From the NCBI GenBank assembly GCA_018823175.1, contig JAHJIY010000007.1:32725-96724 (forward strand): a DNA stretch of 64,000 bases, written 5' to 3'. Positions 15,533 through 35,723 of the stretch are shown piece after piece; the stretch's first letter is position 1; every line of letters starts with the position of its first letter. Below the pieces are notes generated by a model. That model had not been told where the DNA came from, made no database searches, and saw nothing but the letters and a program-made list of their open reading frames with translations. The translations under genes were made by a program, and so were the position numbers. The DNA comes from Pseudomonadota bacterium (GTDB lineage Bacteria; Desulfobacterota; Desulfobulbia; Desulfobulbales; JAHJIY01).

Positions 15533-15714
15533 TGCTGTTTATCAATAATTGCACTGTCGGGTGAGGTTCAACCCTGATTTAGAAAATTGTCAGATCAAGT
15601 CTGGATTTCCAGATTTTATGGGTATTTTGCCTGCACCCGTAAATTTGGCAGAACTTGACCCCAACCGCATAAAACCTGTAGAATTTTCTATAGTTGATTA
15701 TTTAAATTTTATGG
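15533..15714 (+). repeat. 182-bp direct repeat, copy A (left boundary of accessory segment)
   Basis: 175/182 identical to 32784-32965, same orientation, no indels. Confidence 0.9.
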
Positions 15715-15810
15715 ATGTCCCCGGAACTGGATGTCCAGGGGCCAGCAAGAATTCATGTCCCAAAGGGCTTTTTCTACAGGCTCGTTAACCTCCAGAATAT
15801 ATTTCTACTC

Positions 15811-15855
15811 TTGACATACAATCCCTCCCGAACTATAATCTAGACAGACTAGACA
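15811..15855 (+). promoter_or_regulatory. Consensus sigma70-type promoter plus direct-repeat operator for the toxin-antitoxin operon
   Basis: TTGACA (15811-15816), 17-nt spacer, TATAAT (15834-15839). This is followed immediately by CTAGACA-GA-CTAGACA (15840-15855), and the RBS AGGAGG is at 15868. Confidence 0.6.
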
Positions 15856-15880
15856 TAATAAAACATTAGGAGGTATGATT

Positions 15881-16132
15881 ATGGGGAATGTATGGCAACT
15901 TCAGGAAGCCAAAAACAAATTTAGCAACTTGGTTGACAAAGCCCACCATGAAGGCCCTCAAGTTGTTACAAAGCATGGCAAAGAATCTGTCGTAATTATA
16001 GCTATTGAAGACTACCAAAAACTTAATAAACCAAAATCAGACTTAATATCTTTCTTTAATAAATCCCCTCTCTCGGGCATAAATCTCGACCTCACAAGAG
16101 ACAAAAGCTCTTCAAGGGACATCGAATTATGA
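15881..16132 (+). CDS. Type II antitoxin, Phd/YefM family
   Basis: WQLQEAKNKFSNLVDKAHHEGPQVVTKHGKESVVIIAIEDYQKL is typical of Phd/YefM. ATG 15881 has better RBS spacing than 15875. Its stop overlaps the vapC start (ATGA). Confidence 0.8.
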   Translation: MGNVWQLQEAKNKFSNLVDKAHHEGPQVVTKHGKESVVIIAIEDYQKLNKPKSDLISFFNKSPLSGINLDLTRDKSSSRDIEL

Positions 16133-16548
16133 AGTACTTATTGGACACCTGCGTGATTTCAGAAATCATACGCCCTAAACCATCCATAAAAGTCACCGGA
16201 TGGATCAAAAAAGAAGATGAGAATAATTTCTTCATCAGTGTTTTGACAATTGGCGAACTCCACAAAGGCATTGAAAAGCTTGATGAATCGAAAAGAAAGA
16301 AAGAATTGCACAATTGGGTAGAGAATGACCTTAAAGAAAGATTTTGGACCAGAATCATCGACATTGATCTGCAAACTGCGATGGTTTGGGGGAAAGTGCA
16401 AGGCATGACAGAACGTATTGGCAAACCAATACCCGCAATAGATTCTCTCATTGCCGCAACAGGAATTACTCATCATTTGACAGTTGTAACCCGTAATATC
16501 TCAGACATGAAGGAAAGTGGAGTGGCATTACTTAACCCATGGGAATGA
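16129..16548 (+). CDS. vapC: PIN-domain toxin VapC
   Basis: MKYLLDTCVISE (first acidic PIN residue), later IAATGITHHLTVVTRNISDM; 139 aa. Confidence 0.85.
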   Translation: MKYLLDTCVISEIIRPKPSIKVTGWIKKEDENNFFISVLTIGELHKGIEKLDESKRKKELHNWVENDLKERFWTRIIDIDLQTAMVWGKVQGMTERIGKPIPAIDSLIAATGITHHLTVVTRNISDMKESGVALLNPWE

Positions 16549-16945
16549 TAAGAAAAAAGGTTAAACAGACACTATCTTTAGGCAAAGTTAGTCAAGCCTT
16601 TCCTTTAAAAAAACAAAAGTGCAGTGGTGCCGAAGCCTAAATGCAGTAATCCTGCACCAAAGGGAGTCGAAGCGGTCCCCTGCTAATTTTCGACAGGCAA
16701 CTCCTTCAAATCCGGCTCATCCATTCCACGATTGCCAATCCTACCAAATGGTCAAATGGGGTCAGGTCAAATGTGGTCACAGAGGACTACAAACAATACC
16801 CGGTATTGGCAAAATCATATAGCTTACCATCAGGAAGCTTCGATCACTGCTTAGGAGAGGTCTGCACATTACCTTACCAAGATGGGAAAAATTGGTTTTC
16901 CATCACAAGGAAGAACTTTATCTCAGACAAGGGCCTTTTAATGGA

Positions 16946-17037
16946 TGATCCTGATCCACACATGATCCTGACCCACATGATCCTGACCCATGTGATCCTG
17001 ACCCATGTGATCCTGACCCATGTGATCCTGACCCACT
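16946..17037. repeat. 15-bp tandem repeat, about 6 units (TGATCCTGACCCAYR)
   Basis: TGATCCTGA recurs at 16946, 16963, 16978, 16993, 17008 and 17023. It translates as the artefactual MILTH/VILTH repeat in ORF 16773..17039. Confidence 0.9.
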
Positions 17038-17080
17038 GACCGTGCACGGTTGATGAGGGGGATTGAGGAGGATCTCTTAA

Positions 17081-17329
17081 TCAGTTCTCTACTCTACCGG
17101 GCAGGTGTAAGGCGCGCTCGGCAATCTCAACATGACAGTCGAGACAACGGGTAATGTTTCCACCTGTTCTTTGGGTCATTTCCATATATTTCATCGGCGA
17201 CTTGAATTTCATTTCCTCAGCATGTTTCTGGATATGGGCCTGCTCTTCTACAGTGGCGGCAAACAAGCTGTCGCCAACCAGGATCAACCATAAGCCGCAG
17301 AGAAGTGACACTAATAATCTGTTTCCCAT
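17081..17329 (-). CDS. Small secreted monoheme cytochrome c
   Basis: Signal peptide; single CLDCH heme motif; 17 nt downstream of the octaheme gene on the same strand. Confidence 0.65.
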   Translation of the reverse strand: MGNRLLVSLLCGLWLILVGDSLFAATVEEQAHIQKHAEEMKFKSPMKYMEMTQRTGGNITRCLDCHVEIAERALHLPGRVEN

Positions 17330-17346
17330 TCTTAACCCTCATTACA

Positions 17347-18591
17347 TTAAAAAGAAAGATAGGTGACGCTATTGACCGTTGCGCTGCTACCATGGTAATG
17401 GCAGCTGATACAGTCGGTATAGCCCCCACTCGGATGACAGATGATACAACTGGCCCCGCCCTGAATTGCGCTGTGGGAAGCCATCACCGTGCCGCCATCT
17501 CCGTGGCATCGTTCGCAAAGCGAGGCCATTTGTGTGCCCCCGGTATCAGGGGCGAGACCGGTGGCGGAAACCTGGCCGTTGTTTACTTCCTGTCTGATTA
17601 AGAAGACATTCGGTGAGCCGTGCGGCTCATGACAATCAGTACAGGCCAGGACGTAGGAGACGCCACTGGTGTAGGGCGCTATCAGTGTGGCGGAGAGGCT
17701 TGACGGCAGGCCATGCCGATCTTGTCCCCAATTGATTTTTATCAAGTTCCTGCTTAGTAGGGAGCTGTATATCGTATTTGTACTGTTGTGGCAGTCTATG
17801 CAAAAGGTGTTGAAGTCTGTAAGATTGGAACCATCCTCGACCGAGGTGCCATCCGGCTCAAAAACACCACCACCCCATCGCAGAAGGGCCTGATATGAAC
17901 TGGAGTAGCTGCTCATTCTTTCGCCGACGTCATCCCCCCATAAACCCCAAGGGGCGCTACCGTGCTGGCTTGGCAGGGAAAGCATCCAACCTCTTGCCAG
18001 GTCGTTTTTGGGGGTGAATCCGTCGTGGGTCGGATCACCCTGGACGGCATGGGGATCGTGACAGGCCACGCAGGGATTCGCCTTACTGGTATATTTCCAT
18101 GACGACTGGGCGCCGGCGCTGATAAAAGTTCTAATATCCGCCAGATTGTGCGAACTGGAGGAGGGGTAGGTCAAGGAGGTAGTAAAAGCAAAGGCCTCTG
18201 CAATATCATTGAGTGTGTCGGCAGTCCAGGCGCCGGCCCGATAACTATATGATCGATTCACGATGCCGCCGTCGGTCTGAACCGCAGCTACATCCGTGTG
18301 ACATTTCATACACGCCCCGTCGGTCTGACTGACATGATTATCGTAAAAAAGGAGGGCGGCCGATGGCCCATCGCTTGGAGCCGGCTCGCTTCCTTCGATG
18401 GAGGCGTGCTGTTCGTGGCAGTGCGCGCAATTGGCCCGCGCATAGCCTAAAGAGCTAATGCTTGAACGATTGACCCCATAGGTGGAATTACCATGCGCCG
18501 AGTCCAAGTAGATACCGGCCATCGCCTCGCCCGGCCGGCAAAGAAAAACTATGACTATAACACCAAAGAAGATCCAGAAGATATGCTTCAT
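17347..18591 (-). CDS. Secreted octaheme c-type cytochrome
   Basis: Signal peptide MKHIFWIFFGVIVIVFL. Eight CxxCH motifs: CAHCH, CMKCH, CVACH, CIDCH, CTDCH, CERCH, CIICH, CISCH. Confidence 0.85.
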   Translation of the reverse strand: MKHIFWIFFGVIVIVFLCRPGEAMAGIYLDSAHGNSTYGVNRSSISSLGYARANCAHCHEQHASIEGSEPAPSDGPSAALLFYDNHVSQTDGACMKCHTDVAAVQTDGGIVNRSYSYRAGAWTADTLNDIAEAFAFTTSLTYPSSSSHNLADIRTFISAGAQSSWKYTSKANPCVACHDPHAVQGDPTHDGFTPKNDLARGWMLSLPSQHGSAPWGLWGDDVGERMSSYSSSYQALLRWGGGVFEPDGTSVEDGSNLTDFNTFCIDCHNSTNTIYSSLLSRNLIKINWGQDRHGLPSSLSATLIAPYTSGVSYVLACTDCHEPHGSPNVFLIRQEVNNGQVSATGLAPDTGGTQMASLCERCHGDGGTVMASHSAIQGGASCIICHPSGGYTDCISCHYHGSSATVNSVTYLSF

Positions 18592-19160
18592 GCTTACCTT
18601 GTTTGTTTAATCTGAACTCATCTAATAACTGGCCTCGGGCCAGGGGATTTACGTTCAGAGAAGAGCAAAGTCCATGTGGTTGTGCGGCGGCCCGACTCAT
18701 CGCCTGATGGATCCATCATCTTGTTGTGCAAGATGTGAACATATTTTTTGGGCAGAGTGTCGTCTGATTTTTGAATAAAAAGAAATATTATTCATGAATA
18801 GTAGCTATTATTATGAAAACCAATTTAGTTGTCAAGTATAATATGACTGTATTTAGAGTAGGTTCCAGAATTATTTTTTTCAGCAACCCGGCCATGATCG
18901 TCAACAACCCTTATATTAAAAATGCAGTTTCTCCTCTTCCAGAGAAGGACCTCTCGCTTGACCCCTCGCCTTCTAGGACGCCAGGGATTCCGTGGTGATC
19001 TTAACCTCAAAACTGCAGTTTCATGATTATATCAATTATTAACGCCTTCTTAATACTTTCCAAACAATCATTGCTTATTATCAAGGAAGTGGACCCGGTT
19101 GATAGCAGTTCAACCCGGTCTGAGAGTCCGGTGGTTAATTCATCTATGGGGAGGATCATA

Positions 19161-19385: not shown

Positions 19386-19518
19386 AGAGATTGGCCAAGC
19401 TTAAGTCTTTTCGTTCGATAACAATAACTTTTTTTTTAGGCATTAGGTTTGCAGATACAGAAAGGTTGAGCAACAGGCATGACCGTAAAAAAGACCAAAC
19501 CAGAGAGAACATTTGGCA

Positions 19519-20250
19519 ATGCTAAACTCCCTTAAATCAGCCGGCTTTGCTGGAAATACCAGGGGCGATGGCTTCAGTCCGACATCGCAGACTGGGACGG
19601 TGCTGATCGCGGAAGACGAAGATGACATCAGGGAATTACTGGCATATCAACTCCGGAAGGAGGGATATTCGGCAATTCTGGCCGCAAACGGCAGAACAGC
19701 CTATGAAATGGCAGCAGAATATACTCCCGACCTGATCGTCCTTGATATTATGATGCCGGAAATTAACGGCATCGAGCTTTGTGAAATGATCCGAAAAGAC
19801 TCAGCCCTTGAAGAAATCCCGATTATCTTTGTGACGGCCAATACCGATGATGAAGTTCTGGCCCGGGCCTTTCAGGTCGGGGGAAATGATTATATTCGTA
19901 AGCCGTTCAATAAAATCGAATTGCTGACGAGAATTAGGGCTGTTCTGACCCACAAGGAGTTGATCGAAGCAAAAAGAGTAGAACAGAAATTGACCGGCGT
20001 TATGGAATTGGCCGGGGCCGTTGCCCATGAATTGGGGCAGCCTCTCCAGACTATTCTGACCTGTTCAGAATTGCTGGTTCTGGGAAGTGATCAAGGAGAG
20101 AGGACCCGGGAACTGGTGAAAATTATTTCCGAGCAGTGTCGAAGAATGGCTGATATCAGCAAAAAAGTTCGGAAAATCACCACCTACTCGACCAAAAAAT
20201 ATATCGGCAGCACCAACATAATCGATATCGATAAAGCTACTGCTGAATAA
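19519..20250 (+). CDS. Response regulator with C-terminal HisKA/DHp-like domain but no ATPase domain
   Basis: REC motifs VLIAEDEDDI, LIVLDIMMPEING, IRKPF. H-box-like AVAHELGQPLQTIL. The protein ends about 65 aa later with no N/G boxes. Confidence 0.75.
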   Translation: MLNSLKSAGFAGNTRGDGFSPTSQTGTVLIAEDEDDIRELLAYQLRKEGYSAILAANGRTAYEMAAEYTPDLIVLDIMMPEINGIELCEMIRKDSALEEIPIIFVTANTDDEVLARAFQVGGNDYIRKPFNKIELLTRIRAVLTHKELIEAKRVEQKLTGVMELAGAVAHELGQPLQTILTCSELLVLGSDQGERTRELVKIISEQCRRMADISKKVRKITTYSTKKYIGSTNIIDIDKATAE

Positions 20251-20366
20251 CCCTAAAATCCTGCGGCTAGAAGGCTTTATTGCTGCCGACCCGGACAAAA
20301 CATGGACCAGAAAGAGCTTTTGGCAATGCTAAACTCCATAAACCAGCCGCCTTTACCGGGAATTCC

Positions 20367-21506
20367 ATGAACGAGAGCCTTAATCCGACTAAGCAGGCGG
20401 GTACGGTGTTGATCGCGGAAGACGAAGATGACATCAGGGAATTACTGGCCTATCAACTCCGGAAGGAGGGATATTCGGCAATCCTGGCCGCCAACGGCAG
20501 AATAGCCTATGAAATGGTAGAAAGAAATAATCCAGACCTGATCATTCTCGATATTATGATGCCCGAGATGGACGGCTGGGAGGTGTGCCGGAGAATTCGT
20601 GGTCACCATAATCCTCTTGTTTCGACGGTACCCGTAATAATGCTGACGGCGTTAGGTGATCACCAGGATAAGCACCTGGGGCTTGATCTTGGGGCAGATG
20701 CCTTTGTCAGTAAAATGTGCCCGATCAAAGAAGTGCTTCTTTACTGCCGGAATTTTATAAGACTAAGGCACAATTACTTGGCGCTGCTTAAGCAAAAGGA
20801 CTACGACGCCAATATTCCTTTTAATGATATCCATCGACTTCTTATTCATGAGCTGAAAAACCATCTTTTCATTATCGGCGGGATGTCAAACTTATTAGCC
20901 AAAGCAAATGAATTGGCCGGGGAAGAGCGAAATTTAATCAATCATATTGCCAATAGTAGCGAATATCTGGGCATGATCGCCAACGACCTGAAAATGCTTG
21001 AGGAGATAAAAGATGATGGGCGCCATGTCCCTGCGACACGCTTCGATCTGAATGAATTAATAGAAAATGTTGTGGCGCTGCAAAGGTTATTTGCCGAAAA
21101 TCGGACAATTAATGTCCGTCGCCGCTTCTTTGCTGATCCCTGTCCGGTCCAGCTCAATAAAACGGTGGTGAAGATTGTCGTATCAATGATATTGGAAAAT
21201 GCCCTTAAGTATTGTCATCCCGGGGCGGAAGTACATATTTGCAGTCTGCGTGAAGACAACATGATTAAAATAAAAATTACAGATAATGGCCCTGGTATCG
21301 ATGCCTCAGAGCAGGAACTGATCTTTGAAAAAGAATATCGGGCTAAATCTGTAAGGCAAAAAATATCGGGTACCGGTTTAGGCCTCTATTTGGCCAAAAC
21401 ATTAACGAAAATGTTAGATGGTAAAATCACTGTTGAAAGCAATCCCGGTCAAGGGAGCACGTTCACAATCTCTTTTCGGGAACAGGCCACCTCTCATTCT
21501 CAATGA
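20367..21506 (+). CDS. Hybrid REC-histidine kinase (REC + HisKA + HATPase)
   Basis: REC nearly identical to the upstream paralog (VLIAEDEDDIRELLAYQLRKEGYSAILAANGR). H-box IHELKNHLFII, N-box LENALKY, G-boxes DNGPGI and GTGLGLYLAKTL. ATG 20367 is the first in-frame ATG in the ORF. Confidence 0.8.
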   Translation: MNESLNPTKQAGTVLIAEDEDDIRELLAYQLRKEGYSAILAANGRIAYEMVERNNPDLIILDIMMPEMDGWEVCRRIRGHHNPLVSTVPVIMLTALGDHQDKHLGLDLGADAFVSKMCPIKEVLLYCRNFIRLRHNYLALLKQKDYDANIPFNDIHRLLIHELKNHLFIIGGMSNLLAKANELAGEERNLINHIANSSEYLGMIANDLKMLEEIKDDGRHVPATRFDLNELIENVVALQRLFAENRTINVRRRFFADPCPVQLNKTVVKIVVSMILENALKYCHPGAEVHICSLREDNMIKIKITDNGPGIDASEQELIFEKEYRAKSVRQKISGTGLGLYLAKTLTKMLDGKITVESNPGQGSTFTISFREQATSHSQ

Positions 21507-21943
21507 AGGGCATAGTAACTATCTCTCCACAAAGCAATTCTTCAATAAATTGTTCAAGAAACTGTTCTCCCAAAAGTTTACCGACATAATCAACAAAATA
21601 TCGACAACTTCCCGGCGACTTATACCTACTGGCCTGTCTGGTCTTTATCTTATTAACCTTTCCTTCCATATAAATTCGATCTAATTACGAAACTGCTCTA
21701 TGGCGGTCCGAAGGCCGGACATTGGGACGCCCTGACATTTTTGCAAGGAATGGTCCCTTCGCGCCAAATCCATAGAGCCGACAACCGGGCAAAAAACGTA
21801 ATTTAACCGAAATTTAATAAGAACATAACCTTAACCAAACATAGCGTTGATAAGTTTGGATTCAACCTTGAGGGATATCGTTTCTCTCTGACCAACATAG
21901 GTGGATTGTTGATCTTTATTAATTTTCAATAGGAGAATTGAAG

Positions 21944-24061
21944 ATGGCTACTAAGAGTAGAACGGTCCTTATTGCATTGAATGCATTAATGGCGCTTTCT
22001 TTAACGGCATGCGGCGGTGGAGGTGGCGGCGGTAGTGCTGCCACCAACGACACGAACACAGGCACTACACTTTCAACATTGGCAGGAGATATTACGACAG
22101 ACACTACTCTCACTGCCGATACAGTATGGGAGCTTGATGGCCTGGTTGCGGTCAAAGGCGCGACCTTAACCATTGAACCAGGCACCACCATCATCGGCAA
22201 AAGCGGCACCGGCGCCAACACCAGTTACCTGGTGATCGACAAGGACGCCGACATCATAGCCGAAGGCACCGCAGCCGAACCGATCATCTTTACCTCTAAA
22301 ACTGCCTACGATGGCGGCGCCGAGGCCCCCGGCCAGTGGGGCGGTCTGACCATCATCGGCAATGCCGCCGATGTCGGCTCCGCCACACCCCAGGTTGAGC
22401 CCTATGAAGTAGACACCCAGTTTGTTGCCGGCACCACTGATGCGGCCGACAGCTCCGGTATTCTCAGATATGTCGAGATCCTTAACTCCGGGATCACCAT
22501 GGAGCAGGATAAGGAGATCAATGGCCTCTCCATGGTTGGCGTCGGCAGCGGCACCATCGTCGATCACGTAACGGTCAAAAGAAGCGACGACGACTGTATC
22601 GAGATCTGGGGCGGCACCGTCAATGTTTCTAACGCCACGGTCGAATACTGTACCGATGACCAGTTCGATATCGACGACGGCTACTCCGGCACCGTCACCA
22701 ACCTGACGATCAACCAGCATACCGACGGCAACGCCGGTATCGAGATGTCCGGCTCAACCGCCGCAACCTTCATCGGCCTGAACCTTACCCAGAATTACTC
22801 GGATAAGGAAGGTGCCATCTACTTCAAGAAGGACGGTATCGGTGGTCATTTTGAGAACTGCCAGATCATCGACAACGTCGATGACGGCCTGACCATCTAT
22901 TCGACCGGAAATGCCGATGAGGCCAATATCTCGTTTACCGACGTCACCTTATCCAGTCCCACTATTTCAACAAACTTCGTTGACGATCCCAATGGCGGCA
23001 GCGCCGCTGAGATCGAAGCAGCTTTCGATGCAGGTTTAGGAAATTCAGAAGCCTTGAGCGGGGCAGCTCTCCAAGTTTCAACCCTGGCAGGAGATATTAC
23101 GACAGACACTACCCTCACTGCCGATACAGTTTGGGAGCTTGACGGTCTGGTTGCGGTCAAAGGCGCGACCTTAACCATTGAACCAGGCACCACCATCATC
23201 GGCAAAAGCGGCACCGGCGCCAACACCAGTTACCTGGTGATCGACAAGGACGCCGACATCATAGCCGAAGGCACCGTAGCCGAACCGATCATCTTTACCT
23301 CTAAAACTGCCTACGATGGGGGCGCCGAGGCCCCCGGCCAGTGGGGTGGTCTGACCATCATCGGCAATGCCGCCGATGTCGGTTCCGCCACACCCCAGGT
23401 TGAGCCCTATGAAGTAGACACCCAGTTTGTTGCCGGCTCCACTGATGCGGCCGACAGCTCCGGTATTCTCAGATATGTCGAGATCCTTAACTCCGGGATC
23501 ACCATGGAGCAGGATAAGGAGATCAACGGTCTCTCTATGGTTGGCGTCGGCAGCGGCACTATCGTCGACCACGTAACGGTCAAAAGAAGCGATGACGACT
23601 GTATCGAGATCTGGGGCGGCACCGTCAATGTTTCTTATGCCACGGTCGAGTACTGCACCGATGACCAGTTCGATATCGACGACGGCTACTCCGGCACCGT
23701 CACCAACCTGACGATCAACCAGCATACCGACGGCAACGCCGGTATCGAGATGTCCGGCTCAACCGCCGCAACCTTCATCGGCCTGACCCTTACCCAGAAT
23801 TACTCGGATAAGGAAGGAGCCATCTACTTCAAGAAGGACGGTATTGGGGGTCATTTTGAGAATTGCCGGATCATCGACAACGTCGATGACGGTCAGACCA
23901 TCTATTCGACCGGTAATGCCGATGAAGCCAGGATCTCTTTTGCCAATGTGACCATTACCAGCCCGGATCCTTCGACGAATTTCGTTGACGACCCCAATGG
24001 CGGTACCGCCGCCGAGATCGAAACGGTATTCGATGCCGGAACCGGGAACAGCGAAAATTAG
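21944..24061 (+). CDS. Large lipoprotein made of two near-identical 335-aa modules (beta-helix-like, function unknown)
   Basis: RBS AGGAGA 7 nt before ATG 21944; lipobox LSLTAC followed by a Gly7 linker. Each module starts STLAGDITTDTTLTADTVWELDGLVAVKGATLTIEPGTTIIGK…PIIFTS, a pattern reminiscent of right-handed beta-helix proteins. Confidence 0.8.
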   Translation: MATKSRTVLIALNALMALSLTACGGGGGGGSAATNDTNTGTTLSTLAGDITTDTTLTADTVWELDGLVAVKGATLTIEPGTTIIGKSGTGANTSYLVIDKDADIIAEGTAAEPIIFTSKTAYDGGAEAPGQWGGLTIIGNAADVGSATPQVEPYEVDTQFVAGTTDAADSSGILRYVEILNSGITMEQDKEINGLSMVGVGSGTIVDHVTVKRSDDDCIEIWGGTVNVSNATVEYCTDDQFDIDDGYSGTVTNLTINQHTDGNAGIEMSGSTAATFIGLNLTQNYSDKEGAIYFKKDGIGGHFENCQIIDNVDDGLTIYSTGNADEANISFTDVTLSSPTISTNFVDDPNGGSAAEIEAAFDAGLGNSEALSGAALQVSTLAGDITTDTTLTADTVWELDGLVAVKGATLTIEPGTTIIGKSGTGANTSYLVIDKDADIIAEGTVAEPIIFTSKTAYDGGAEAPGQWGGLTIIGNAADVGSATPQVEPYEVDTQFVAGSTDAADSSGILRYVEILNSGITMEQDKEINGLSMVGVGSGTIVDHVTVKRSDDDCIEIWGGTVNVSYATVEYCTDDQFDIDDGYSGTVTNLTINQHTDGNAGIEMSGSTAATFIGLTLTQNYSDKEGAIYFKKDGIGGHFENCRIIDNVDDGQTIYSTGNADEARISFANVTITSPDPSTNFVDDPNGGTAAEIETVFDAGTGNSEN
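22070..24058 (+). repeat. In-frame tandem duplication, period 1005 bp (2 copies) inside the lipoprotein gene
   Basis: GGCAGGAGATATTACGACAGACACT occurs at 22081 and 23086, an offset of exactly 1005 bp. The copies are nearly identical over the first ~800 bp and more diverged in the last ~150 bp. Confidence 0.9.
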
Positions 24062-24113
24062 TGCTGTAAATCGCCAAGCCGTAAACAGACCAGTAATAAA
24101 TATCCAAACAGCT

Positions 24114-24142
24114 GGTTGTCGGTGGTCTCCCCACCGATAACC
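24114..24142 (+). other. Strong 12-bp stem-loop between lipoprotein gene and TonB2 genes
   Basis: GGTTGTCGGTGG (24114-24125) pairs with CCACCGATAACC (24131-24142) with one G-U pair. Loop TCTCC; no T-run follows. Confidence 0.5.
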
Positions 24143-24182
24143 GGCTAAGTATCTATAACAATGACGATTTTACGGAGAAAAG

Positions 24183-25004
24183 ATGTTTGCGAAATATCAA
24201 AACTTTGACCGATTGAAAGAAGTAGAGGATCGGATCGTAAGATTCTGCTTATTCTTGTTCTTCGGGCTATTGATCCTCCTCCCATCCGGTCCGGCCCGAG
24301 CAGGAACCGACGATGAGATGATCAGCTCGATCATGGCGTTGCGAAGCTCCATTGAAACTCTTTATTCCAGGGTTGATGTCAACCGGGAAAACTACAAGGC
24401 GGAAATGAAGTCGCTTTCCCTGCAGATAGCCGATGCCGAGGCCCAGATCAATCGCAAGAATACAGCGATCAAACTGGCTGAAGTCGAGTTGGGAAAGGTT
24501 AAGAATATAATCGCTGAGGCATCATCGAAGAGCATGGATCTGGCTCCGCTTCTTGACGAGGTCTTTTCCCTTCAGATAACAACCATTGAGGGAGGAATTC
24601 CCTTCAAGATTGCAGAACGGCGGGCCGCACTCGATGAAATCCGTTCCGATCTGCGGGAGAAACTTATCACCCCCGAGCGGGCCCTGGCTCTGCTATGGGC
24701 GTCTTTTGAAGACAATGTGCGATTGACCCGGGAAATCGGTCTTTTCAAACAAAAAATTGAGATCAATGGAACCGAAATGCTTGCTGATGTGGCTAAAATC
24801 GGGACCGTCATGCTCTTTTTCTCGACCCCGGATAAACTGGTCGGCCATGTGGTGCAAGACAAACACGGTTATACCTACCAAGTCATTAACCATAAACAGC
24901 AACAGGAAGAGATTGCCATGCTTTTTGATGCCTTGAACAAACAGATCAGAACCGGATATTTCACTCTGCCCAATGGGCTTGTCCTTCAGGGAGGCCGGTC
25001 ATGA
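24183..25004 (+). CDS. Periplasmic coiled-coil protein, TtpB/DUF3450-like
   Basis: Signal/TM segment, then long coiled-coil-like segments. Sits immediately upstream of, and overlapping (ATGA), the long MotA/ExbB gene, as in TonB2 clusters. Family assignment is by position and composition only. Confidence 0.55.
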   Translation: MFAKYQNFDRLKEVEDRIVRFCLFLFFGLLILLPSGPARAGTDDEMISSIMALRSSIETLYSRVDVNRENYKAEMKSLSLQIADAEAQINRKNTAIKLAEVELGKVKNIIAEASSKSMDLAPLLDEVFSLQITTIEGGIPFKIAERRAALDEIRSDLREKLITPERALALLWASFEDNVRLTREIGLFKQKIEINGTEMLADVAKIGTVMLFFSTPDKLVGHVVQDKHGYTYQVINHKQQQEEIAMLFDALNKQIRTGYFTLPNGLVLQGGRS

Positions 25005-26335
25005 AGCAGGGGGTCATCGTAATGTTCGCGCTATTGGCAATATTGCCGGGACTCTGGCCGGAAACGATTCGGGCCGACGAGTTGACCGAAACCTACCGCA
25101 AGGAATATGCCTTCCTGAAAGCTCAGAAGGATGAACTGACCGGACAGCTGGCTGCGGAAGAAAAACGGCAGAGTGAGGAACTTTCTCGGGTTAGGGAAAA
25201 GGTGACCCGTCTCCAGGATGAAACCGTCCTGCTTTCCGAACGATTGAATCGGATTGAGGGCGATACCGAAAAGGCCCGACGGGAACTGGGAGAGGCCACC
25301 GGTAACAAGGAGATCGTTGCCAATGTCGTCACTCAAGCCAAATCCGTTCTTGAAGGATACGGAATTTCCGTGGAAAATGAATCGGCATCCCTGGTCGACA
25401 ATATGTCCAGGGCATTCCGGAAGGCCGCCGATCTTTATGGAGATCTTTCGTCGTTGAAGGTCGAAAAGGGGAGCTTCTTTCTGCCGGACGGAAGCTCGGT
25501 ATCCGGCGAGATTGTCCGGATCGGCAATATAGCCGCATATGGAGTCTCTTCCAAGGCAGCCGGGGCGCTGGTCCCAGCCGGCAACGGCGCATTCAGGCTC
25601 TGGGATAAACCAGGCAGTGCAGATGATGCCCGGTCTTTTGTTGTCCGAAAACAACCGGGAAGTCTTGACATCTTTCTCTATGACAACCTCGATAGAGCAG
25701 TGGAGATCCACAAGGAAAAAACCCTGCAAGATATCATCAAGGGGGGTGGAATAATCGGTTACATCATCCTGGGACTCGGGGTATTCGGCATTCTGCTTCT
25801 TCTGGGGCGTTTTTTCTTTCTCTTGAAGGCCGGCAGTAATGTGACGGCGATCACCGGCATCGTTTACGAAAAGCTTGAAAATGGCAATGAAAATGAAGCC
25901 TACTCCGCGATCAAGCATTTCAAAGGCTCCATTGCCCGGGTGATTCGCGCTACCCTTCGGAACATCAACCGTGACCGTGAGCATATCGAAGACATCATCA
26001 CCGAAAATATCTTGAACGAAAACCGCTCCCTGGATCGCTTCGGCAACTTCATCCTGGTTATCGCCGCCGTGGCTCCCTTGTTGGGCTTGCTGGGGACCGT
26101 CACCGGGATGATCTCCACCTTTGACGTGATAACCGTCCACGGAACCGGAGACCCGAAACTTTTGAGCGGCGGTATCTCCGAGGCGCTGATCACCACCATG
26201 TTCGGTTTGCTGGTCGCCATTCCCCTCCTGCTCTTGGGCAATCTCTCCCGCGGCTGGGCGGAAAATATCAAGGATTCCATGGAACAGAGTGCCCTTCACG
26301 TGGTGAACCTTTTTGAAAAGTACAACGCCAAATGA
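25001..26335 (+). CDS. Long MotA/TolQ/ExbB-family proton channel protein (TtpC-like)
   Basis: N-terminal ~230-aa periplasmic coiled-coil extension, then three TM segments with the conserved LLGLLGTVTGMISTFDVI motif; 444 aa. Confidence 0.8.
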   Translation: MKQGVIVMFALLAILPGLWPETIRADELTETYRKEYAFLKAQKDELTGQLAAEEKRQSEELSRVREKVTRLQDETVLLSERLNRIEGDTEKARRELGEATGNKEIVANVVTQAKSVLEGYGISVENESASLVDNMSRAFRKAADLYGDLSSLKVEKGSFFLPDGSSVSGEIVRIGNIAAYGVSSKAAGALVPAGNGAFRLWDKPGSADDARSFVVRKQPGSLDIFLYDNLDRAVEIHKEKTLQDIIKGGGIIGYIILGLGVFGILLLLGRFFFLLKAGSNVTAITGIVYEKLENGNENEAYSAIKHFKGSIARVIRATLRNINRDREHIEDIITENILNENRSLDRFGNFILVIAAVAPLLGLLGTVTGMISTFDVITVHGTGDPKLLSGGISEALITTMFGLLVAIPLLLLGNLSRGWAENIKDSMEQSALHVVNLFEKYNAK

Positions 26336-26952
26336 ACATCGACTTTTTAAGCGCAAAGCTTGATATCTTTATCTCCTTTATGAACAGCGGCGGTTTGGCC
26401 ATGTGGATTCTGTTCGTATTAAACCTTCTCCTTTGGTTCGGCCTGGGACAACGGCGTTTGATCCTGCGACGCGGTACCAATCACAACATCAGACGGCTGG
26501 TTGAAAAACATGTCAGAGAGGAAGGTCGAAAGCCCAGGGGAATTCTTGATCAGGCGATTATCGATGGGCTGGAGGCAGCTGCGGAGGCCCACCAGATCGG
26601 GGCCAAAACGCGAATCTTCATTGATGAAGCCCTCTTCCCATATTTTTCCGCCATCAAGAAACACTCTATCCTGATCAAAACCATTGTGGTGATCGCGCCC
26701 CTGATCGGCCTGCTTGGTACGGTCTCCGGGATGATCGAAACATTCGATGCCTTGCAGACCAGCGCCATGTTTTCACAGGGAGCAAGTATCTCCGGAGGCA
26801 TCTCCAAGGCTCTTTTTACCACCGAGCTCGGTCTGGTGGTGGCTGTGCCCGGCCTGATCATTGGCCGGGTCCTCGACCGCAAGGAATATCGTTTCGCGAT
26901 GGAATTTGATCAGCTGACCAATATCATCTGCACAAAGGAAAACAAGGCATGA
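26332..26952 (+). CDS. exbB: ExbB/TolQ-family proton channel protein
   Basis: IAPLIGLLGTVSGMIETFDAL and GGISKALFTTELGLVVAVPG motifs; start overlaps the upstream stop. Confidence 0.85.
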   Translation: MNIDFLSAKLDIFISFMNSGGLAMWILFVLNLLLWFGLGQRRLILRRGTNHNIRRLVEKHVREEGRKPRGILDQAIIDGLEAAAEAHQIGAKTRIFIDEALFPYFSAIKKHSILIKTIVVIAPLIGLLGTVSGMIETFDALQTSAMFSQGASISGGISKALFTTELGLVVAVPGLIIGRVLDRKEYRFAMEFDQLTNIICTKENKA

Positions 26953-27353
26953 AATTCAGAAGAAAAGATCCACATGTTGAAAATATTGATGTTTCCCCGC
27001 TGATTGACATGGTCTTCATCCTGTTGATTTTTTTCATGGTGTCGACAACCTTTGTCAAGGACCTGAAACTCGACCTGGACCGGCCCAGCGCGGCTTCCGC
27101 CTCTCTGGTCAAAGACAAGGTGATCCGGGTCCATATCGACAAAAACCGGGATATATTCATAGATAATCAAGCAGTCAAAATCTGGGCCATCCAGGCTAAG
27201 CTGCGCGAAATGCTGCGGCATTCGGTGAAAAAATCGGTCCTGGTCATCACCGATACCGCTATTCCGGTGGAAGCGCTCATCGACCTGGTCGACGAGTGCC
27301 GAATGAGCGGGGCCGATGATGTGGCGGTGGCAACCAATAAAGAGCTGGGGTGA
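26949..27353 (+). CDS. exbD: ExbD/TolR-family protein
   Basis: DVSPLIDMVFILLIFFMV N-terminal TM motif; 134 aa; overlaps the exbB stop. Confidence 0.85.
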   Translation: MKFRRKDPHVENIDVSPLIDMVFILLIFFMVSTTFVKDLKLDLDRPSAASASLVKDKVIRVHIDKNRDIFIDNQAVKIWAIQAKLREMLRHSVKKSVLVITDTAIPVEALIDLVDECRMSGADDVAVATNKELG

Positions 27354-27357
27354 GTAT

Positions 27358-28002
27358 ATGTCAACAATGAGATTACATAGACCGATTATGCATGGTTTGG
27401 GAGGCTTTCTGGCCATGCTGATCGGCGGCGGTCTTATGGTGATACTGGTGGTGGCGTTTCAGAAGGGGATAACCAAACAAAAAGTAGTGGTAAGGGAAGA
27501 AACCAGAATCGTCACGACAAAATCGAAACCGAAACAAATGGTTCGCGAGTCCAGACCCCTACAGGCCCAACAAACCAGAAAAATTGATGCCCAGATCCCT
27601 GCTCCGGATCTGGGATTGATAATTGGTGGGATCGCCATGAATATCCCCGAATTCACCCCGGCACCGTTGGTCACCGAAGCAACTGATCTGCTTGACGATA
27701 TTGGCGATAATACGGTGATGACTGAAGATACTGTGGACAGCAAGCCACGAATTACCAACCGGCCGCCGATGGAGTTCCCGAAAAGCGCCGCAAAGGAGGG
27801 CACTACCGGATTTGTCGTCGTCAATCTCCTCATCGGTGAGGATGGAAACGTCGAACTGGTCCGGATCGTCGATTCCCAGCCCCAAGGGGTTTTCGACAAT
27901 ATCGTGATGACCGGAATTCGTAACTGGAACTTTTCCCCCGCAACCTACAAGGGGAAGCCAGTGAAGGTTTGGGCAAAACAAAAAGTGACATTTAAAAGCT
28001 GA
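27358..28002 (+). CDS. tonB: TonB-family energy transducer
   Basis: N-terminal TM and a charged linker. C-terminal TonB domain PEFPKSAAKEGTTGFVVVNLLIGEDGNV…YKGKPVKVW. ATG 27358 lies just after the exbD stop. Confidence 0.8.
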   Translation: MSTMRLHRPIMHGLGGFLAMLIGGGLMVILVVAFQKGITKQKVVVREETRIVTTKSKPKQMVRESRPLQAQQTRKIDAQIPAPDLGLIIGGIAMNIPEFTPAPLVTEATDLLDDIGDNTVMTEDTVDSKPRITNRPPMEFPKSAAKEGTTGFVVVNLLIGEDGNVELVRIVDSQPQGVFDNIVMTGIRNWNFSPATYKGKPVKVWAKQKVTFKS

Positions 28003-28113
28003 CGGTTGTTCACCGTTCTTGTCACCGGTTTTTTCCATCTTTTGAGGCGTTATTCTCCGGCAAAAACTACCGATGTATCATTTTCCGATCGAACTCTGCT
28101 GGTAAAGTTTTTT

Positions 28114-29397
28114 ATGAAAACAGTAATCATCTCGTTCATGATTTGTGCCGCCTTGGGCAGCTCCCTCTATGCCCAGACATCCACCCCGGAGGACCAGATG
28201 GATCATCTTGCCCTGGCTACGCTCATGATTCATGATGGCAGTTATGACAAGGCTTCTTATGAATTGGCCCGGGTCGATCCGGATGAGCCCCGTTTCGACG
28301 GGGCGCGTTACAACACCCTTAAAGGGGTGATCGCCGCCAAAACCGGACATTACCGTCAGGCCATTGATCACTATACAAAAGCGGTCGAAGCGACCAGAAT
28401 CAAGGATTTCAGCCCGCCGAAAATCGAGCGGGAACGGCAGTACCTTTTCTCCATTGGCCAAAGTGATAAACCTGCAAAAGAAGCGGCAATTCCCTCCGGT
28501 TTCAACCCTGAAGCGGTGCGGCGTGAAAAACTGGAAAAACTCTTTCTCTCCCTTGCCCAGGCCTACTATCGGGTTGAAGATTATGCCCGCGCGGCCGAGG
28601 CCCTCGATTTGGCCGGAAGCCGGGGACGGGAGAGGGCAGAACTGTTCAGTCTCAGAGCCGACTGTTACTGGAAATTGCAGGATTATCACCGGGCTATTAG
28701 GGCCCTGAACCGGGGGATTGAACTCTTTCCCGCCAATAGCAGCCTTCTGAAAGGAAAATACACCTATTATTCCGAACTCAATCTTTACAACGCCGCCGGC
28801 GAATTTGCCAAAAAATATCTGGCAACGATCGAACCGGAGGCTAACGACTACCTCAATCTGGCCCATCTCTATAACCTGGCTGAGCGTCTTGATGAGGCTA
28901 TTGCCCTCCTTGAACAGGTAAGGTGGGTTTTTCCCGACAATGCCAAAATCCCCATGCTTCTCGGCCGGTTCTATATGAAAAGCAATATGGATCATGCGGC
29001 GGCCGCACTTTTTCGCAGCGCGGCGGAGATCGACTCAAAGTATTTATCCGATGCCGTTGAGATGTTGCGGCGGATCAAATCCTATCCCCAGGCAATTTAT
29101 TTGAACTCCCAATTGAGCGATACGGCTGAGAAGCTGAAACTAAAGGTGGCGATTCACCTGGACCGGGGTGAATTCGAAAAGGTGATTGGTCTTGGGGACA
29201 GCCTGGAACGGTACAGTATGTTGGACGATGACAACATGCGTTACGCATTTGCCTATGCCTCTTACATGGCCAAGGATTATGACGGCGCCGAGGAGCAGAT
29301 CAGCCGTATCAATGACCGGGAGTTGTACATGAAGGGCATGGTATTGCGAAACAATATCGAAAAATGCCGGAAGGAGAGTACCGAATGCGATCAATGA
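28114..29397 (+). CDS. Periplasmic TPR-repeat protein (TtpD-like position)
   Basis: Signal peptide MKTVIISFMICAALGSSLYA at ATG 28114; TPR-like helical repeats; last gene of the TonB2-type cluster order. Confidence 0.65.
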   Translation: MKTVIISFMICAALGSSLYAQTSTPEDQMDHLALATLMIHDGSYDKASYELARVDPDEPRFDGARYNTLKGVIAAKTGHYRQAIDHYTKAVEATRIKDFSPPKIERERQYLFSIGQSDKPAKEAAIPSGFNPEAVRREKLEKLFLSLAQAYYRVEDYARAAEALDLAGSRGRERAELFSLRADCYWKLQDYHRAIRALNRGIELFPANSSLLKGKYTYYSELNLYNAAGEFAKKYLATIEPEANDYLNLAHLYNLAERLDEAIALLEQVRWVFPDNAKIPMLLGRFYMKSNMDHAAAALFRSAAEIDSKYLSDAVEMLRRIKSYPQAIYLNSQLSDTAEKLKLKVAIHLDRGEFEKVIGLGDSLERYSMLDDDNMRYAFAYASYMAKDYDGAEEQISRINDRELYMKGMVLRNNIEKCRKESTECDQ

Positions 29398-32300
29398 GCA
29401 TGGAACTCTTTATCCCTGCATGGCGTTTATCGTGGAACTGGAGACGGGTGGTTCGACTCGGTTTGCTGAGTGTCTTTCTATGCCTTATGGTTCTCCCTTC
29501 CACCTTGCTTGCCGATGAGATGGGCAGCATCACCGTACTGGTTTTTGAGGGCGGCAAACCCTTGGCCGGGGCCGAGGTGATGGCCAAGGGCGGTATTTCG
29601 GCCCGGACCGATGGAGACGGCGGCGTGAAATTGGAGATGGCCGCAGGTAGCCACCAGCTATTGATCATCGGCAGAGATCCTTTCGGCCGGAACCTGGGTT
29701 ACTTCAGGAGGCAGGTTGAGGTGAGAAAAGGCAAGGATACCATGGTGCTTGCCACCTTTCGTTCCGATAATGACGATCTTATCGAGATCGACACCCCGCT
29801 AGAGGGTAAAAAAGAGCAAAAAATCAAATCGTTTGGGACGGGAACTTTGCAGGGGGCCGTTCTTGACGCCGAAACGGGACTTCCCATCGACAACGCCCGA
29901 ATCTTCATCAAGGGTAGCGCTATCGAGGGCCGAACCGACGAAAACGGTTTATATCGGATCGAAGTTCCCTCCGGCGTTGTCTTTACCGTGTCAATCATCC
30001 ATCCGGAATACTCGGGGCGGACAGTCGATATTCTTGAGGTGGCACAGGGCCAGGAATTTTCCCGGGAGGTTTTGCTCTCTCCCGCCGGTGTGGAACTTGA
30101 AGAGTTTGTTGTCCTGGCCCCAAAGGTGCAGGGTAGTATCACCAGTATAGTCCGGGAAGAGAGAACGACCGTATCCATTGCAAACATCCTCGGTTCCGAA
30201 GAGATGGGTAAAAAAGGAGACAGCTCCGCGGCCGGTGCCCTGAAGAGAGTTACCGGCGTTACCCTGGTCGATGGAGATAATGTCTATGTCCGTGGTCTGG
30301 GTGATCGTTACTCCAATATTGAAATGAACTCCATGCCTCTGCCCTCCCCCAACCCGCTAAAAAGAGTAGTCCCCCTCGATATCTTCCCGGCCGGGGCCAT
30401 CAGCTTAATGAAAGTTCAAAAAAGCGCCACCGCGGACATCCCTTCCAGTTTCGGCGGCGGCTACATCGATATCCACACGAAAGATTCGTCCCGGGAAAAC
30501 TTTCTTAAGGTTTCTCTTGGGGTCGGCGGGAACAGCAATACCGGCGAGAAGGTCTTCTCTTATAAGGGAAGCGATTCGGACGTTTCCGGTTTTGACGATG
30601 GCTACCGGGAGATATCTCCAAATATTTTAAATAATTCCAGTGTGGTTGTCGGTGAAAGAATCACCGGCCTGACTACCGATAATTTCAGTAAAGCGGAGCT
30701 GTCTCAATTTACCCGGGAATACGTCGAAAGGAGTTATGAGGTCGAAAAGGAGAAACAACCCATTGGTTTTGATCTGGGAATCGAAGGCGCCGAAAATTTC
30801 AGCTGGGCCGAAAAGCACGAAGTTGCGCTCTTCGGCTTCTATACCTACGAGACTGACTCCACCTCCAAAATGGAGACTTATAATAAATATGACATGGAAA
30901 AAGCGACCGGCCGGTTGTATCCAGATCCATCCCAGTGGGGGTTAATCGATACGGCAGCAACCGAGTACATCCACAATGGTATGTTGAATATCGGTTATAA
31001 CTACACCGATATTCTCAGAATGAAATACACCAAGCTTTTTACCCATAATGGTGAGAAAACCACCATTGTCGCCGACGGGATTATGGGCTCGAACAATGAG
31101 GACATGACCAAGTATTATTTGAACTGGGAAGAACGCACCATGAATGTCGACCAGTTCAACGGCACCTTCGACTACGAACTGTACGGCAACGAAACCAATT
31201 TCAGGTTCGGGTTGGAAAAAGCAAGCTCTGAACTATACCAGCCGAACAATTACCACTATACCTTCAGAAATGAGGGGGCGCCGTTTCTGGATAACAAGGT
31301 TTCCAACAATATCGCCAATAGACTTGAATCGGATGACAACCTGCTGGCGTTCTATCTGAAAAACAAATTCCACTTCGACCTGTTCAGTCCAGAGGACTTT
31401 ATAGATGTAGGGTTAGCCGTCAGTTCAAAAGAACGGGAGTCGCGTCAAAGCAAATTCTTTCTCAAGAAGCAAGGGGCCGGGTCAATAGTGGACGATCATG
31501 AAATGACCGGAACCATCGAGGAGATATATAACACCTTTGTCCGGCCAGACATCCCTTACGATGAGCGAAGTCTGGTGGTAGGTCAGCTTTTTAAACCCGC
31601 CGACTATTACGATGCCGAGGTTGACGAGACAGCCTTCTACCTAAACTCCTTCTGCAAACCGGAGGAAGATGTGGAGGTTCTTTTCGGCGCCAGGTTCGTC
31701 GATTTCTCCCAGGTTGTCTATCAGTATGTCGAGGACCGGAACAATCCGGACATGTCAAAGCGACGGCTGATCGCCAGGGTCCCCGAAGAACTGACGGTCA
31801 GTGAGGTGTATCCGAGCCTGGGAGTGAAATATAGCTACAATCCCAAGAATATATTCGATCTGGCCCTGTCACAAACCTATATCGCTCCCGATCTAAGGGA
31901 GTTCACCAGCGGTGAATATTTTCATCCCTATGAGGTCGCCACCATTATCGGTAATCCGGACCTGGTTAACACCGATATCTTCAGCTTCGATCTGAAGTAC
32001 GGCCATTATTTTTCCGACATCCAGTACATCAAATTAGGCTTGTTCTATAAATATCTCGATAAGCCGATCGAAGATGTCATGGTCCCCTCGTCATCATTAC
32101 CGATATACTCCTTCGATAATGCCGACAAGGCTACCATGTACGGCCTGGAGATTGACGGCAGGAAAAATCTATCCTTTATCTCCGAATGGCTGGAAAACTA
32201 TTATCTGGCCGGAAACCTGTCGTTTATCGAATCGGAGGTGACCTTGAGGAAGGAGCAGGAAAGCATTTACAGCACCAATAACCGGGAACTCCAAGGGCTT

Positions 32301-32621
32301 TCGCCGATCGTGGTCAACCTTACCTTGGGTTTTGATCGTAGAGACAGAAGCATAACCCTTTCCTACAACAAGATGGGAGAAAGGATCAGGAAAGTCGGTA
32401 TGATTGATGACGGTGACTCCTACCCGGACCAATACGAGGCCCCACCCGCAATCCTTGACTTTGTCTGGATTGAAAAGTTCGGCCACGGACTGAGTCTAAA
32501 GGGCAAGATCGGAAATATTCTGCGTGATGACACGGTCTGGACCCAGGGTAACAGGGTCACCACAAGCTATAAGGATCCGATAAAATTCAGCCTGGAAATC
32601 TCCTTTTCTGCCGGACTTTAG
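29385..32621 (+). CDS. TonB-dependent outer-membrane receptor with two N-terminal carboxypeptidase-regulatory-like domains (Oar-like)
   Basis: Signal peptide. Two beta-sandwich-like modules (GSITVLVFEGGKPLAGAEV…; GTLQGAVLDAETGLPIDNARIFIKGS…TDENGLYRIEVP). Plug region GDSSAAGALKRVTGVTLVDGDNVYVRGLGDRYSNIEMN, then a long barrel. The start is uncertain (ATG 29364, 29385, 29394 or 29400). Confidence 0.8.
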   Translation: MRSMSMELFIPAWRLSWNWRRVVRLGLLSVFLCLMVLPSTLLADEMGSITVLVFEGGKPLAGAEVMAKGGISARTDGDGGVKLEMAAGSHQLLIIGRDPFGRNLGYFRRQVEVRKGKDTMVLATFRSDNDDLIEIDTPLEGKKEQKIKSFGTGTLQGAVLDAETGLPIDNARIFIKGSAIEGRTDENGLYRIEVPSGVVFTVSIIHPEYSGRTVDILEVAQGQEFSREVLLSPAGVELEEFVVLAPKVQGSITSIVREERTTVSIANILGSEEMGKKGDSSAAGALKRVTGVTLVDGDNVYVRGLGDRYSNIEMNSMPLPSPNPLKRVVPLDIFPAGAISLMKVQKSATADIPSSFGGGYIDIHTKDSSRENFLKVSLGVGGNSNTGEKVFSYKGSDSDVSGFDDGYREISPNILNNSSVVVGERITGLTTDNFSKAELSQFTREYVERSYEVEKEKQPIGFDLGIEGAENFSWAEKHEVALFGFYTYETDSTSKMETYNKYDMEKATGRLYPDPSQWGLIDTAATEYIHNGMLNIGYNYTDILRMKYTKLFTHNGEKTTIVADGIMGSNNEDMTKYYLNWEERTMNVDQFNGTFDYELYGNETNFRFGLEKASSELYQPNNYHYTFRNEGAPFLDNKVSNNIANRLESDDNLLAFYLKNKFHFDLFSPEDFIDVGLAVSSKERESRQSKFFLKKQGAGSIVDDHEMTGTIEEIYNTFVRPDIPYDERSLVVGQLFKPADYYDAEVDETAFYLNSFCKPEEDVEVLFGARFVDFSQVVYQYVEDRNNPDMSKRRLIARVPEELTVSEVYPSLGVKYSYNPKNIFDLALSQTYIAPDLREFTSGEYFHPYEVATIIGNPDLVNTDIFSFDLKYGHYFSDIQYIKLGLFYKYLDKPIEDVMVPSSSLPIYSFDNADKATMYGLEIDGRKNLSFISEWLENYYLAGNLSFIESEVTLRKEQESIYSTNNRELQGLSPIVVNLTLGFDRRDRSITLSYNKMGERIRKVGMIDDGDSYPDQYEAPPAILDFVWIEKFGHGLSLKGKIGNILRDDTVWTQGNRVTTSYKDPIKFSLEISFSAGL

Positions 32622-32783
32622 GCCTGGTTCGCCCTCGTATCAAAAACCTCCAATGGAGTTTCGTGAGTTCCGGAACTTCCGGGAACTTCCCGATGTGGAA
32701 TGTTCACTGGCGCCACCATTGATCACCGACGTTAACCTTTCTTGTCAATATCATGAAAAGCTACTCTCAAAATTCATACTTCC

Positions 32784-32965
32784 TGCTGTCTATCAACAAT
32801 TGCACTGTCGGGTGAGGTTTAACCCTGATTTAGAAAATTGTCAGATCAAGTCTGAATTTCCAGATTTTATGGGTATTTTGCCGGCACCCGAAAATTCGGC
32901 AGAACTTGACCCCAACCGCATAAAACCTGTAGAATTTTCTATAGTTGATTATTTAAATTTTATGG
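32784..32965 (+). repeat. 182-bp direct repeat, copy B (right boundary of accessory segment)
   Basis: 175/182 identical to 15533-15714, same orientation. Confidence 0.9.
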
Positions 32966-33026
32966 GGCCACGGTCTTTTCTGGTTAACTAGCTGAAATAG
33001 TTGGTCTTGTCCGGCACGGGGTGAGG

Positions 33027-34496: not shown

Positions 34497-34499
34497 ATT

Positions 34500-35709: not shown

Positions 35710-35723
35710 CAAGGAGTTTCTAA

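Follow-up and report, generated by a model that had tools for sequence, protein, structure and literature searches.

A 182-bp direct repeat in a Desulfobulbales contig as a possible displaced copy of the cheW-lysM promoter region

The stretch of DNA analysed here (hereafter the window) comprises 64,000 nucleotides of contig JAHJIY010000007.1 (positions 32,725 to 96,724 of the forward strand; GenBank assembly GCA_018823175.1), from a bacterium placed in the Desulfobulbales. It contains two 182-bp direct repeats, copies A and B, which enclose a segment of about 17 kb. We posit that the promoter region of the gene next to copy B, which encodes a CheW-LysM protein (cheW-lysM), is present twice and constitutes the repeated unit, and that copy A was displaced by a short dispersed duplication; to this overall explanation we give about an even chance. 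Considerably more certain is one of its parts, namely that the conserved block within the unit is, by phylogenetic footprinting, the predicted promoter of cheW-lysM. If the explanation is right, an apparent island border is in fact a duplicated native promoter, which would caution against calling islands from flanking direct repeats alone. The duplicated promoter fragment itself would be an ordinary kind of feature that arose from a fairly ordinary local duplication.

The repeat pair and its conserved promoter block

Copies A and B are co-oriented and identical at 175 of 182 positions without a gap, both by alignment and in a BLAST search of the window against itself (E=1.6e-80; period 17,251 bp), just as an earlier note, made from the letters alone, had described them. 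They differ at unit positions 7, 14, 37, 72, 100, 108 and 114, with TAA in copy A and CAA in copy B at position 14. All seven substitutions lie in unit positions 1-114 and none in the promoter-holding positions 115-182, for which the chance is (114/182)^7 = 0.04, and the longest perfect identity between the copies amounts to 68 bp. The substitution-free last 68 nt of the unit fit constraint on both copies, or chance. Same-side flanks of 60-300 nt were no more similar than shuffled controls, so that the borders are sharp, and cross-flank comparisons of the two copies revealed no extended homology. A third copy or fragment of the unit was not found in the window by self-BLAST (E<=1e-3).

Two Logan contigs of run SRR2540949, a metagenome obtained from rock biofilm at the Aspo Hard Rock Laboratory (PMC5364579), are 100% identical to the window, one of them covering 32936-36332 (L001) and the other starting at 15685 (L039). 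Each begins exactly 30 nt before a unit's end, and we attribute these breakpoints to the k=31 assembly graph, which breaks at repeats. Exact 24- to 35-mers of the unit were absent from collections of genomes, metagenomes and viral contigs, and the unit with its flanks had no BLAST match in plasmid and phage collections.

Both copies show, within their 3' third, a match to a sigma-70-type promoter (-35 TTGACC, 18-nt spacer, -10 TAGAAT; 10 of 12 matches). The unit was searched against the loci fetched for CheW-LysM homologues. Apart from its own contigs, the only meaningful matches were to unit positions 122-155 in the loci L002 and L003, where they lie 100-150 nt upstream of the genes for CheW-LysM homologues. 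Unit positions 1-120 are not conserved in the relatives, unlike the promoter-like block. The shared pattern, CTTGACCC-N14-CTGTA[G/A]A[A/G]T, has identical internal spacing in the window and in L002, L003 and L045, and in these three distant relatives it is found ~95-125 nt upstream of the CheW-LysM homologues, whose products are 43-52% identical to the window protein (L002 and L003, 43%). Within the -10 hexamer, T1, A2, A4 and T6 are invariant and positions 3 and 5 vary.

The pattern is also rare outside this context. Among the 45 loci fetched to that point it occurred only in L002, L003 and L045, plus two eukaryote-like loci that had been fetched by a scan with a stricter pattern, and within the window it occurs only in copies A and B, even with three mismatches allowed. 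A degenerate form gave only two chance matches in metagenomes (L042 1153-1182; L043 4845-4874), both instances of the same eukaryote-like repeat in one sample and unrelated to the locus, and it had no match in viral contigs. Because the same motif precedes the CheW-LysM homologues of the relatives, copy B appears to stand in the proper place of the cheW-lysM promoter. Transcription is predicted to start near 32942, which gives a leader of ~85-95 nt to the start codon at 33027/33036. Copy B would be the working copy, consisting of ~120 nt of upstream DNA, the core promoter and ~25 nt of the start of the transcript, and would drive cheW-lysM. The motif thereby offers a phylogenetically supported promoter for the uncharacterised CheW-LysM family in Desulfobacterota.

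The CheW-LysM gene is convergent with a gene for a ParA/MinD-like ATPase (33021-35474). In one relative (L044 6001-8776) the CheW-LysM homologue ends a full che operon and lacks the conserved promoter. These settings hint that the protein helps to position chemotaxis arrays or to anchor them to the cell wall. The right flank continues from CheW-LysM and the ParA-like ATPase to ileS, fabD, ffh, rimM and trmD. The neighbourhoods of the CheW-LysM homologues in relatives have no neighbour genes in common with the window, and around ileS, whose best identities (62-70%) are to Desulfocapsa and Desulfobulbaceae metagenome-assembled genomes, only the ParA-like gene is kept. The collections searched contained no genome close enough for a comparison of a possible empty site.

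Direction of copying and the surroundings of copy A

Copy A is followed by unrelated sequence and copy B by the cheW-lysM leader and gene, and we therefore regard 15714/15715 as a breakpoint. Support for B as the older copy comes from its left flank, where a 29-nt element resembles the region upstream of the cheW-lysM homologue in L002. The score of this match was reached by 0 of 1000 shuffles and by 3 of 2000 random segments of the window. If the match is real, the left flank of copy B is native, so that copy A would be derived and a model in which the enclosed segment was inserted would be contradicted; we hold the native state of this flank tentatively. On these grounds we infer that copying ran from B to A, and a short dispersed duplication seems the most likely origin of copy A, likelier than the site-specific integration of a foreign island.

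Copy A would then be a recent secondary copy, ~4% diverged, placed 17.25 kb upstream of its source on the margin of an AT-rich patch with a toxin-antitoxin (TA) pair. It may have arisen by templated insertion, or by illegitimate recombination that accompanied the entry of the TA patch. The pair, reported in the earlier note as VapBC-type and just inside the left repeat, is indeed there, with recognizable Phd/YefM and PIN domains. With no predicted terminator to separate it from phd, copy A probably fires into phd-PIN as a second promoter, in addition to a promoter-like site of the operon itself (Table 1). On the minus strand, the cytochrome genes and two small genes resembling those of outer-membrane beta-barrel proteins (13934-18591) are separated only by the AT-rich patch (15303-17080), which contains copy A and the TA pair. 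This array may be one operon split by an insertion, and the AT-rich TA patch is possibly what split it.

Several points weigh against the explanation offered here. For the direction from B to A the main evidence is a single 29-nt match, and to one distant relative only, L002; the similarity between the copy B leader and the L002 leader is marginal (42 of 1000 shuffles scored as high). A 182-bp dispersed duplication has left no signature of its mechanism, and the copy A junction shows only a 4-nt microhomology, ATGG, which ends both the left flank and the unit. An integration scar, too, would take the form of direct repeats around a block whose inner end on one side has a TA module and AT-rich debris. 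The plus strand of the unit folds more stably than shuffled sequences (z=-2.94, 0 of 200 as stable), and a promoter leaves this fold unexplained. The activity of either promoter copy is a prediction from the sequence, and the copy count of two is that of the 64-kb window.

Table 1. Features of the window and of the related promoter loci (window positions, except where a locus is named).
Feature	Position	Strand	Remarks
Repeat copy A	15533-15714	+	Right end 15714/15715 adjoins unrelated AT-rich DNA
Repeat copy B	32784-32965	+	~60-70 nt upstream of the cheW-lysM start
Predicted promoter core, copy A	15654-15684 (hexamers 15655-15684)	+	CTTGACCC-N14-CTGTAGAAT
Predicted promoter core, copy B	32905-32935 (hexamers 32906-32935)	+	Motif and spacing kept in L002, L003, L045
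Promoter alignment, window			CTTGACCC CAACCGCATAAAAC CTGTAGAAT
Promoter alignment, L002	9851-9880		CTTGACCC CAACAGGGTTAAAA CTGTAGAGT
Promoter alignment, L003	9872-9901		CTTGACCC GGTCAGAATGAAAG CTGTAGAGT
Promoter alignment, L045	2532-2561		CTTGACCC GGATCAGACGAAAA CTGTAAAAT
29-nt element, copy B left flank	32649-32677	+	Resembles L002 9764-9793 (23/29), colinear with the promoter
CheW-LysM gene	33021-34496	+	Database call starts at 33036, 486 aa
TA operon promoter-like site	15811-15839	+	Perfect consensus TTGACA-17-TATAAT
Phd/YefM-type antitoxin	15875-16132 (alternative start 15881, called in L039)	+	PF02604, E=5.7e-16
PIN-domain (VapC-like) toxin	16129-16548	+	PF01850, E=1.3e-11; 4-nt overlap with antitoxin gene
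15-bp minisatellite	16945-17036		6 copies
c-type cytochromes, 1-haem (82 aa) and 8-haem (414 aa)	17081-18591	-	8-haem: MtrC/MtrF-like domain, 17347-18591
REC-HisKA (245 aa) and REC-HATPase (408 aa), adjacent	19513-21506	+	Receiver domains 84% identical in DNA
Eight-gene module	21938-32621	+	Beta-helix, DUF3450, TtpC-like MotA/ExbB, ExbB, ExbD, TonB, TPR, CarboxypepD_reg TonB-dependent receptor

The enclosed segment, the island alternative and recombination

Some 60% of the enclosed DNA is taken up by a single module of eight genes, which runs from a beta-helix protein of 707 aa to a TonB-dependent receptor of 1085 aa. The module is intact and in the same order in four relatives (L040 3456-13165; L041 2508-13174; L046 2519-13165; L047 616-13195). 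In L040, the nearest of them, it directly adjoins PhoB-PhoU-PstB-PstS-PstA-PstC, and in the window the left flank likewise holds PhoR/B, PhoU, PstCAB and PstS, together with the two small outer-membrane-protein-like genes. For the module, protein identity between the window and L040 ranges from 54 to 76%; the pst genes and PhoB lie at 62-79% and PhoU at 38%. Because the module is conserved, adjoins pst in L040 and falls in the same range of identity, it looks as native as the pst genes.

Phosphate-related genes neighbour the module in every one of the four relatives; outside the Pho/Pst setting these are an alkaline phosphatase in L047 and a PAP2 phosphatase in L046. The receptor has 76% identity to a homologue in a Desulfobulbales metagenome-assembled genome and 65-68% to those of many others, which is closer than the relatives of CheW-LysM. 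We posit that the module is tied functionally or ancestrally to the phosphate genes and represents a candidate Pho-linked TonB-dependent uptake system. No convincing match to an E. coli-type Pho box was found in the unit or in the regions upstream of pst and of the module. The recurrence of this module beside phosphate-acquisition genes is perhaps of more biological interest than the repeat.

The earlier note had listed a duplicated lipoprotein among the enclosed genes, which turned out to be the beta-helix ORF, a single open reading frame (ORF) with an internal tandem duplication of ~1 kb. Its ~335-aa repeats differ in number, with about one in L040, two in the window (22071-24039), L041 (2508-4673) and L046, and about four in L047 (616-4758). 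The ~1-kb repeats are 94% identical in DNA in the window and 85% in L041, and the orthologues share 79% protein identity. This suggests concerted evolution or recurrent duplication of the repeats, and by the same token that homologous exchange operates in the region.

The remaining genes of the segment, too, largely agree with the first description: the minisatellite, the cytochromes, the TonB2 module and the receptor were all found, and the paralogous regulators correspond to two receiver-domain kinase fragments. The latter pair resembles a hybrid histidine kinase that was split or partly duplicated. Gene scans likewise bore out the flanks, Pho and outer-membrane-protein genes on the left and CheW-LysM and ileS on the right, and the GC content does drop at 15.25-16.97 kb (35-45% GC, the TA patch) and at 18.7-18.9 kb. 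A possible IS110 remnant did not hold up, and with it fell the idea of a bridge RNA: it consists only of the motif LQTIPGIGKII, and Pfam had no match, even at E<=10, when all three plus-strand frames of 16540-17350 were scanned.

The strongest alternative is that the 17 kb are an old, immobilised island, as the earlier note had considered. Circular DNA bearing a copy of the cheW-lysM promoter would have recombined, in a site-specific or Campbell-type manner, between the gene hyp242 and cheW-lysM; the unit would have been duplicated as attL/attR-like repeats, the cheW-lysM promoter restored, and the recombinase later lost. We consider this unlikely, while granting it real weight. Co-oriented and sharp-bordered repeats do bracket the block, and its left inner end is AT-rich and holds the TA pair, the minisatellite and non-coding debris. 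Deletion from repeat to repeat would leave a working locus, and the module, which has homologues ~50-55% identical in Sulfurimonas and Sulfurovum (Campylobacterota) and varied neighbourhoods from genome to genome, does move over long timescales.

However, Pfam scans of the likely genes of at least 82 aa in the segment, and of the three-frame translation mentioned above, revealed no integrase, recombinase or transposase domain, in agreement with the absence of integrases and recombinases already noted from the letters. A scan of the window found no tRNA or tmRNA that could serve as target, and the repeat is an intergenic promoter region. A copy that is 96% identical over 120 nt not conserved among relatives must stem from the same lineage. 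The identity of the module to the nearest relative lies in the range of the pst genes, and it is adjacent to pst there as well. Finally, an insert would include the left flank of copy B, yet this flank resembles the region upstream of cheW-lysM in L002.

The bulk composition of the segment is not anomalous. The module genes have a negative GC skew at third codon positions (GC3 skew), as opposed to a positive one in every gene to their right; a recent arrival or inversion as its cause was rejected, as the L040 and L041 orthologues have the same coding-strand skew and the anomaly is intrinsic to the genes. The tetranucleotide distance of the segment rises mildly, in part from the internal repeat of the beta-helix gene, and atypical composition is limited to 15.25-16.97 kb and short intergenic stretches. 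The motif CCGGAACT, tried as a recombinase arm site near both inner ends, was unconvincing (6 matches versus 2.2 expected; 4 of 100 shuffles reach 6). The reading of the 17 kb as a foreign island is thus weakened, and a duplicated cheW-lysM promoter region is the explanation that we prefer.

Whatever its origin, the repeat pair may matter for the stability of the region. A 68-bp perfect stretch within repeats that are 96% identical overall is enough for rare RecA-dependent unequal exchange. Such crossing-over between copies A and B would result in deletion or tandem amplification of 17,251 bp, and cheW-lysM would keep an intact promoter in every recombination product. A chromosomal TA pair inside a deletable block is expected to disfavour loss of the block, and the pair just inside copy A would accordingly tend to penalise deletion. 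The suggestion that the segment is poised for deletion by homologous recombination stands, by the geometry of the repeats, and deletion or amplification of the 17 kb is plausible. In a deep-subsurface Desulfobulbales population, the repeats would thus delimit 17 kb that may be lost or amplified through recombination.

A more far-reaching reading is that the segment is a recombination-switched cassette of phosphate-linked TonB2 uptake, cytochromes and regulators, or an integrase-less element mobilised in trans with a promoter mimic as attachment site. In the former case, reversible excision, deletion or amplification would make the members of a population differ in whether they have the genes or in gene dosage. 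Loss would be disfavoured by the TA pair, and cheW-lysM would stay expressed in all forms by virtue of its duplicated promoter. We judge this quite improbable.

Other identities of the unit and comparison with known systems

Very unlikely, in our estimation, is a dispersed mobile repeat (of the kind of miniature inverted-repeat transposable elements, MITEs, or of REP elements) that carries a promoter and brackets the 17 kb by coincidence. The borders of the unit are discrete and sharp, the breaks of the Logan contigs coincide with the unit, as is expected for any repeat, and another short dispersed repeat family is present in the genome. Yet the 64 kb contain just two copies of the unit, its borders show no terminal inverted repeats and no target-site duplication, no inverted-repeat pair involving it was reported, and the nucleotide collections searched gave no match. 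The ORF of copy B has no second cluster member or homologue, and more copies would probably have given some. Moreover, conservation of the promoter part at the cheW-lysM locus is orthologous. A composite transposon was rejected, given a unit of 182 bp, an ORF without homologue or family, and no insertion-sequence (IS) transposase.

The other dispersed family has a hairpin (…GTTTGAGTCGnnGAGCGaCTCAACTCAGCTTTAT) and occurs at 35634-35708, 44096-44163, 47410-47501, 61524-61615 and 61664-61696, in both orientations and for the most part between genes; it has no relation to the 182-bp unit. Between the ParA-like gene and ileS, arrays of GAAGGTT (~10 copies) and of its complement, at 35344-35413 and 35468-35533, make up an imperfect inverted repeat of 58 nt; a related array lies at 57440-57487.

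The earlier note had also raised two copies of a structured or regulatory RNA. The word regulatory has fared well, given the conserved promoter, whereas the evidence points to DNA and not to RNA. That the copies represent a small or cis-acting structured RNA, with a 3' hairpin and U-rich tail as terminator, strikes us as highly improbable. The stable plus-strand fold described above speaks for it, and the unit ends just past a 7-bp hairpin and a U-rich stretch; the minus strand (z=-1.5) folds no better than shuffles. However, a scan of the whole window found no Rfam family at gathering score, which answers the check that had been proposed. The best score for the unit was 14 bits against a cut-off of 65, and permissive hits to copy A reached 12-16 bits against cut-offs of 42-75. 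The two copies share no promoter upstream of the unit, positions 1-120 are not conserved as the promoter-like block is, and the AU-rich hairpin overlaps with the -10 element. No substitution falls on a paired position of the consensus fold, but for two sequences only such a comparison is circular and so uninformative.

The remnant of a duplicated small protein-coding gene is practically ruled out: although one frame is open across both units (112 aa in B, where a gene caller annotated the ORF, with a TAA at position 14 in A), an indexed search of 5.8 billion clustered proteins and an exhaustive search of 1.84 billion representatives found no homologue (one 21-residue match was spurious), Pfam and NCBIfam gave no match, the substitutions in this frame are four non-synonymous, one nonsense and two synonymous, and GC3 is 0.40, far below that of the neighbouring genes. 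This sustains the earlier verdict that no credible ORF lies in the repeat.

Among known systems, islands and prophages bounded by attL and attR are similar in that co-oriented repeats bracket a block, one repeat keeps the flanking gene functional, and a TA pair lies at an AT-rich inner end. They differ in their integrase and in their tRNA, tmRNA or gene-end target, in place of which we find a lineage-specific 182-bp promoter region, and the main cargo here is a conserved module as similar to that of the nearest relative as are the pst genes. Unequal crossing-over between IS or rrn copies deletes or amplifies repeat-flanked chromosomal units. The window resembles such units in having two co-oriented homologous stretches ~17 kb apart, but its repeats are short and are neither IS nor rRNA genes, and the comparison extends to geometry alone.

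Correia elements of Neisseria are dispersed repeats that carry promoters. Like them, the unit described here is a short non-coding repeat that would carry a sigma-70-type promoter to a second place. Unlike them, it has no terminal inverted repeats or target duplication, and it has two copies, one of which appears to be the orthologous native promoter. The cargo, finally, recalls the Vibrio-type TonB2 gene order, TtpB-TtpC-ExbB2-ExbD2-TonB2-TtpD. Positions 24183-29397 of the window show the same order of domains (DUF3450, long MotA/ExbB, ExbB, ExbD, TonB, TPR), but here a beta-helix repeat protein and a CarboxypepD_reg TonB-dependent receptor are constant companions of the set, which is found repeatedly beside phosphate genes.

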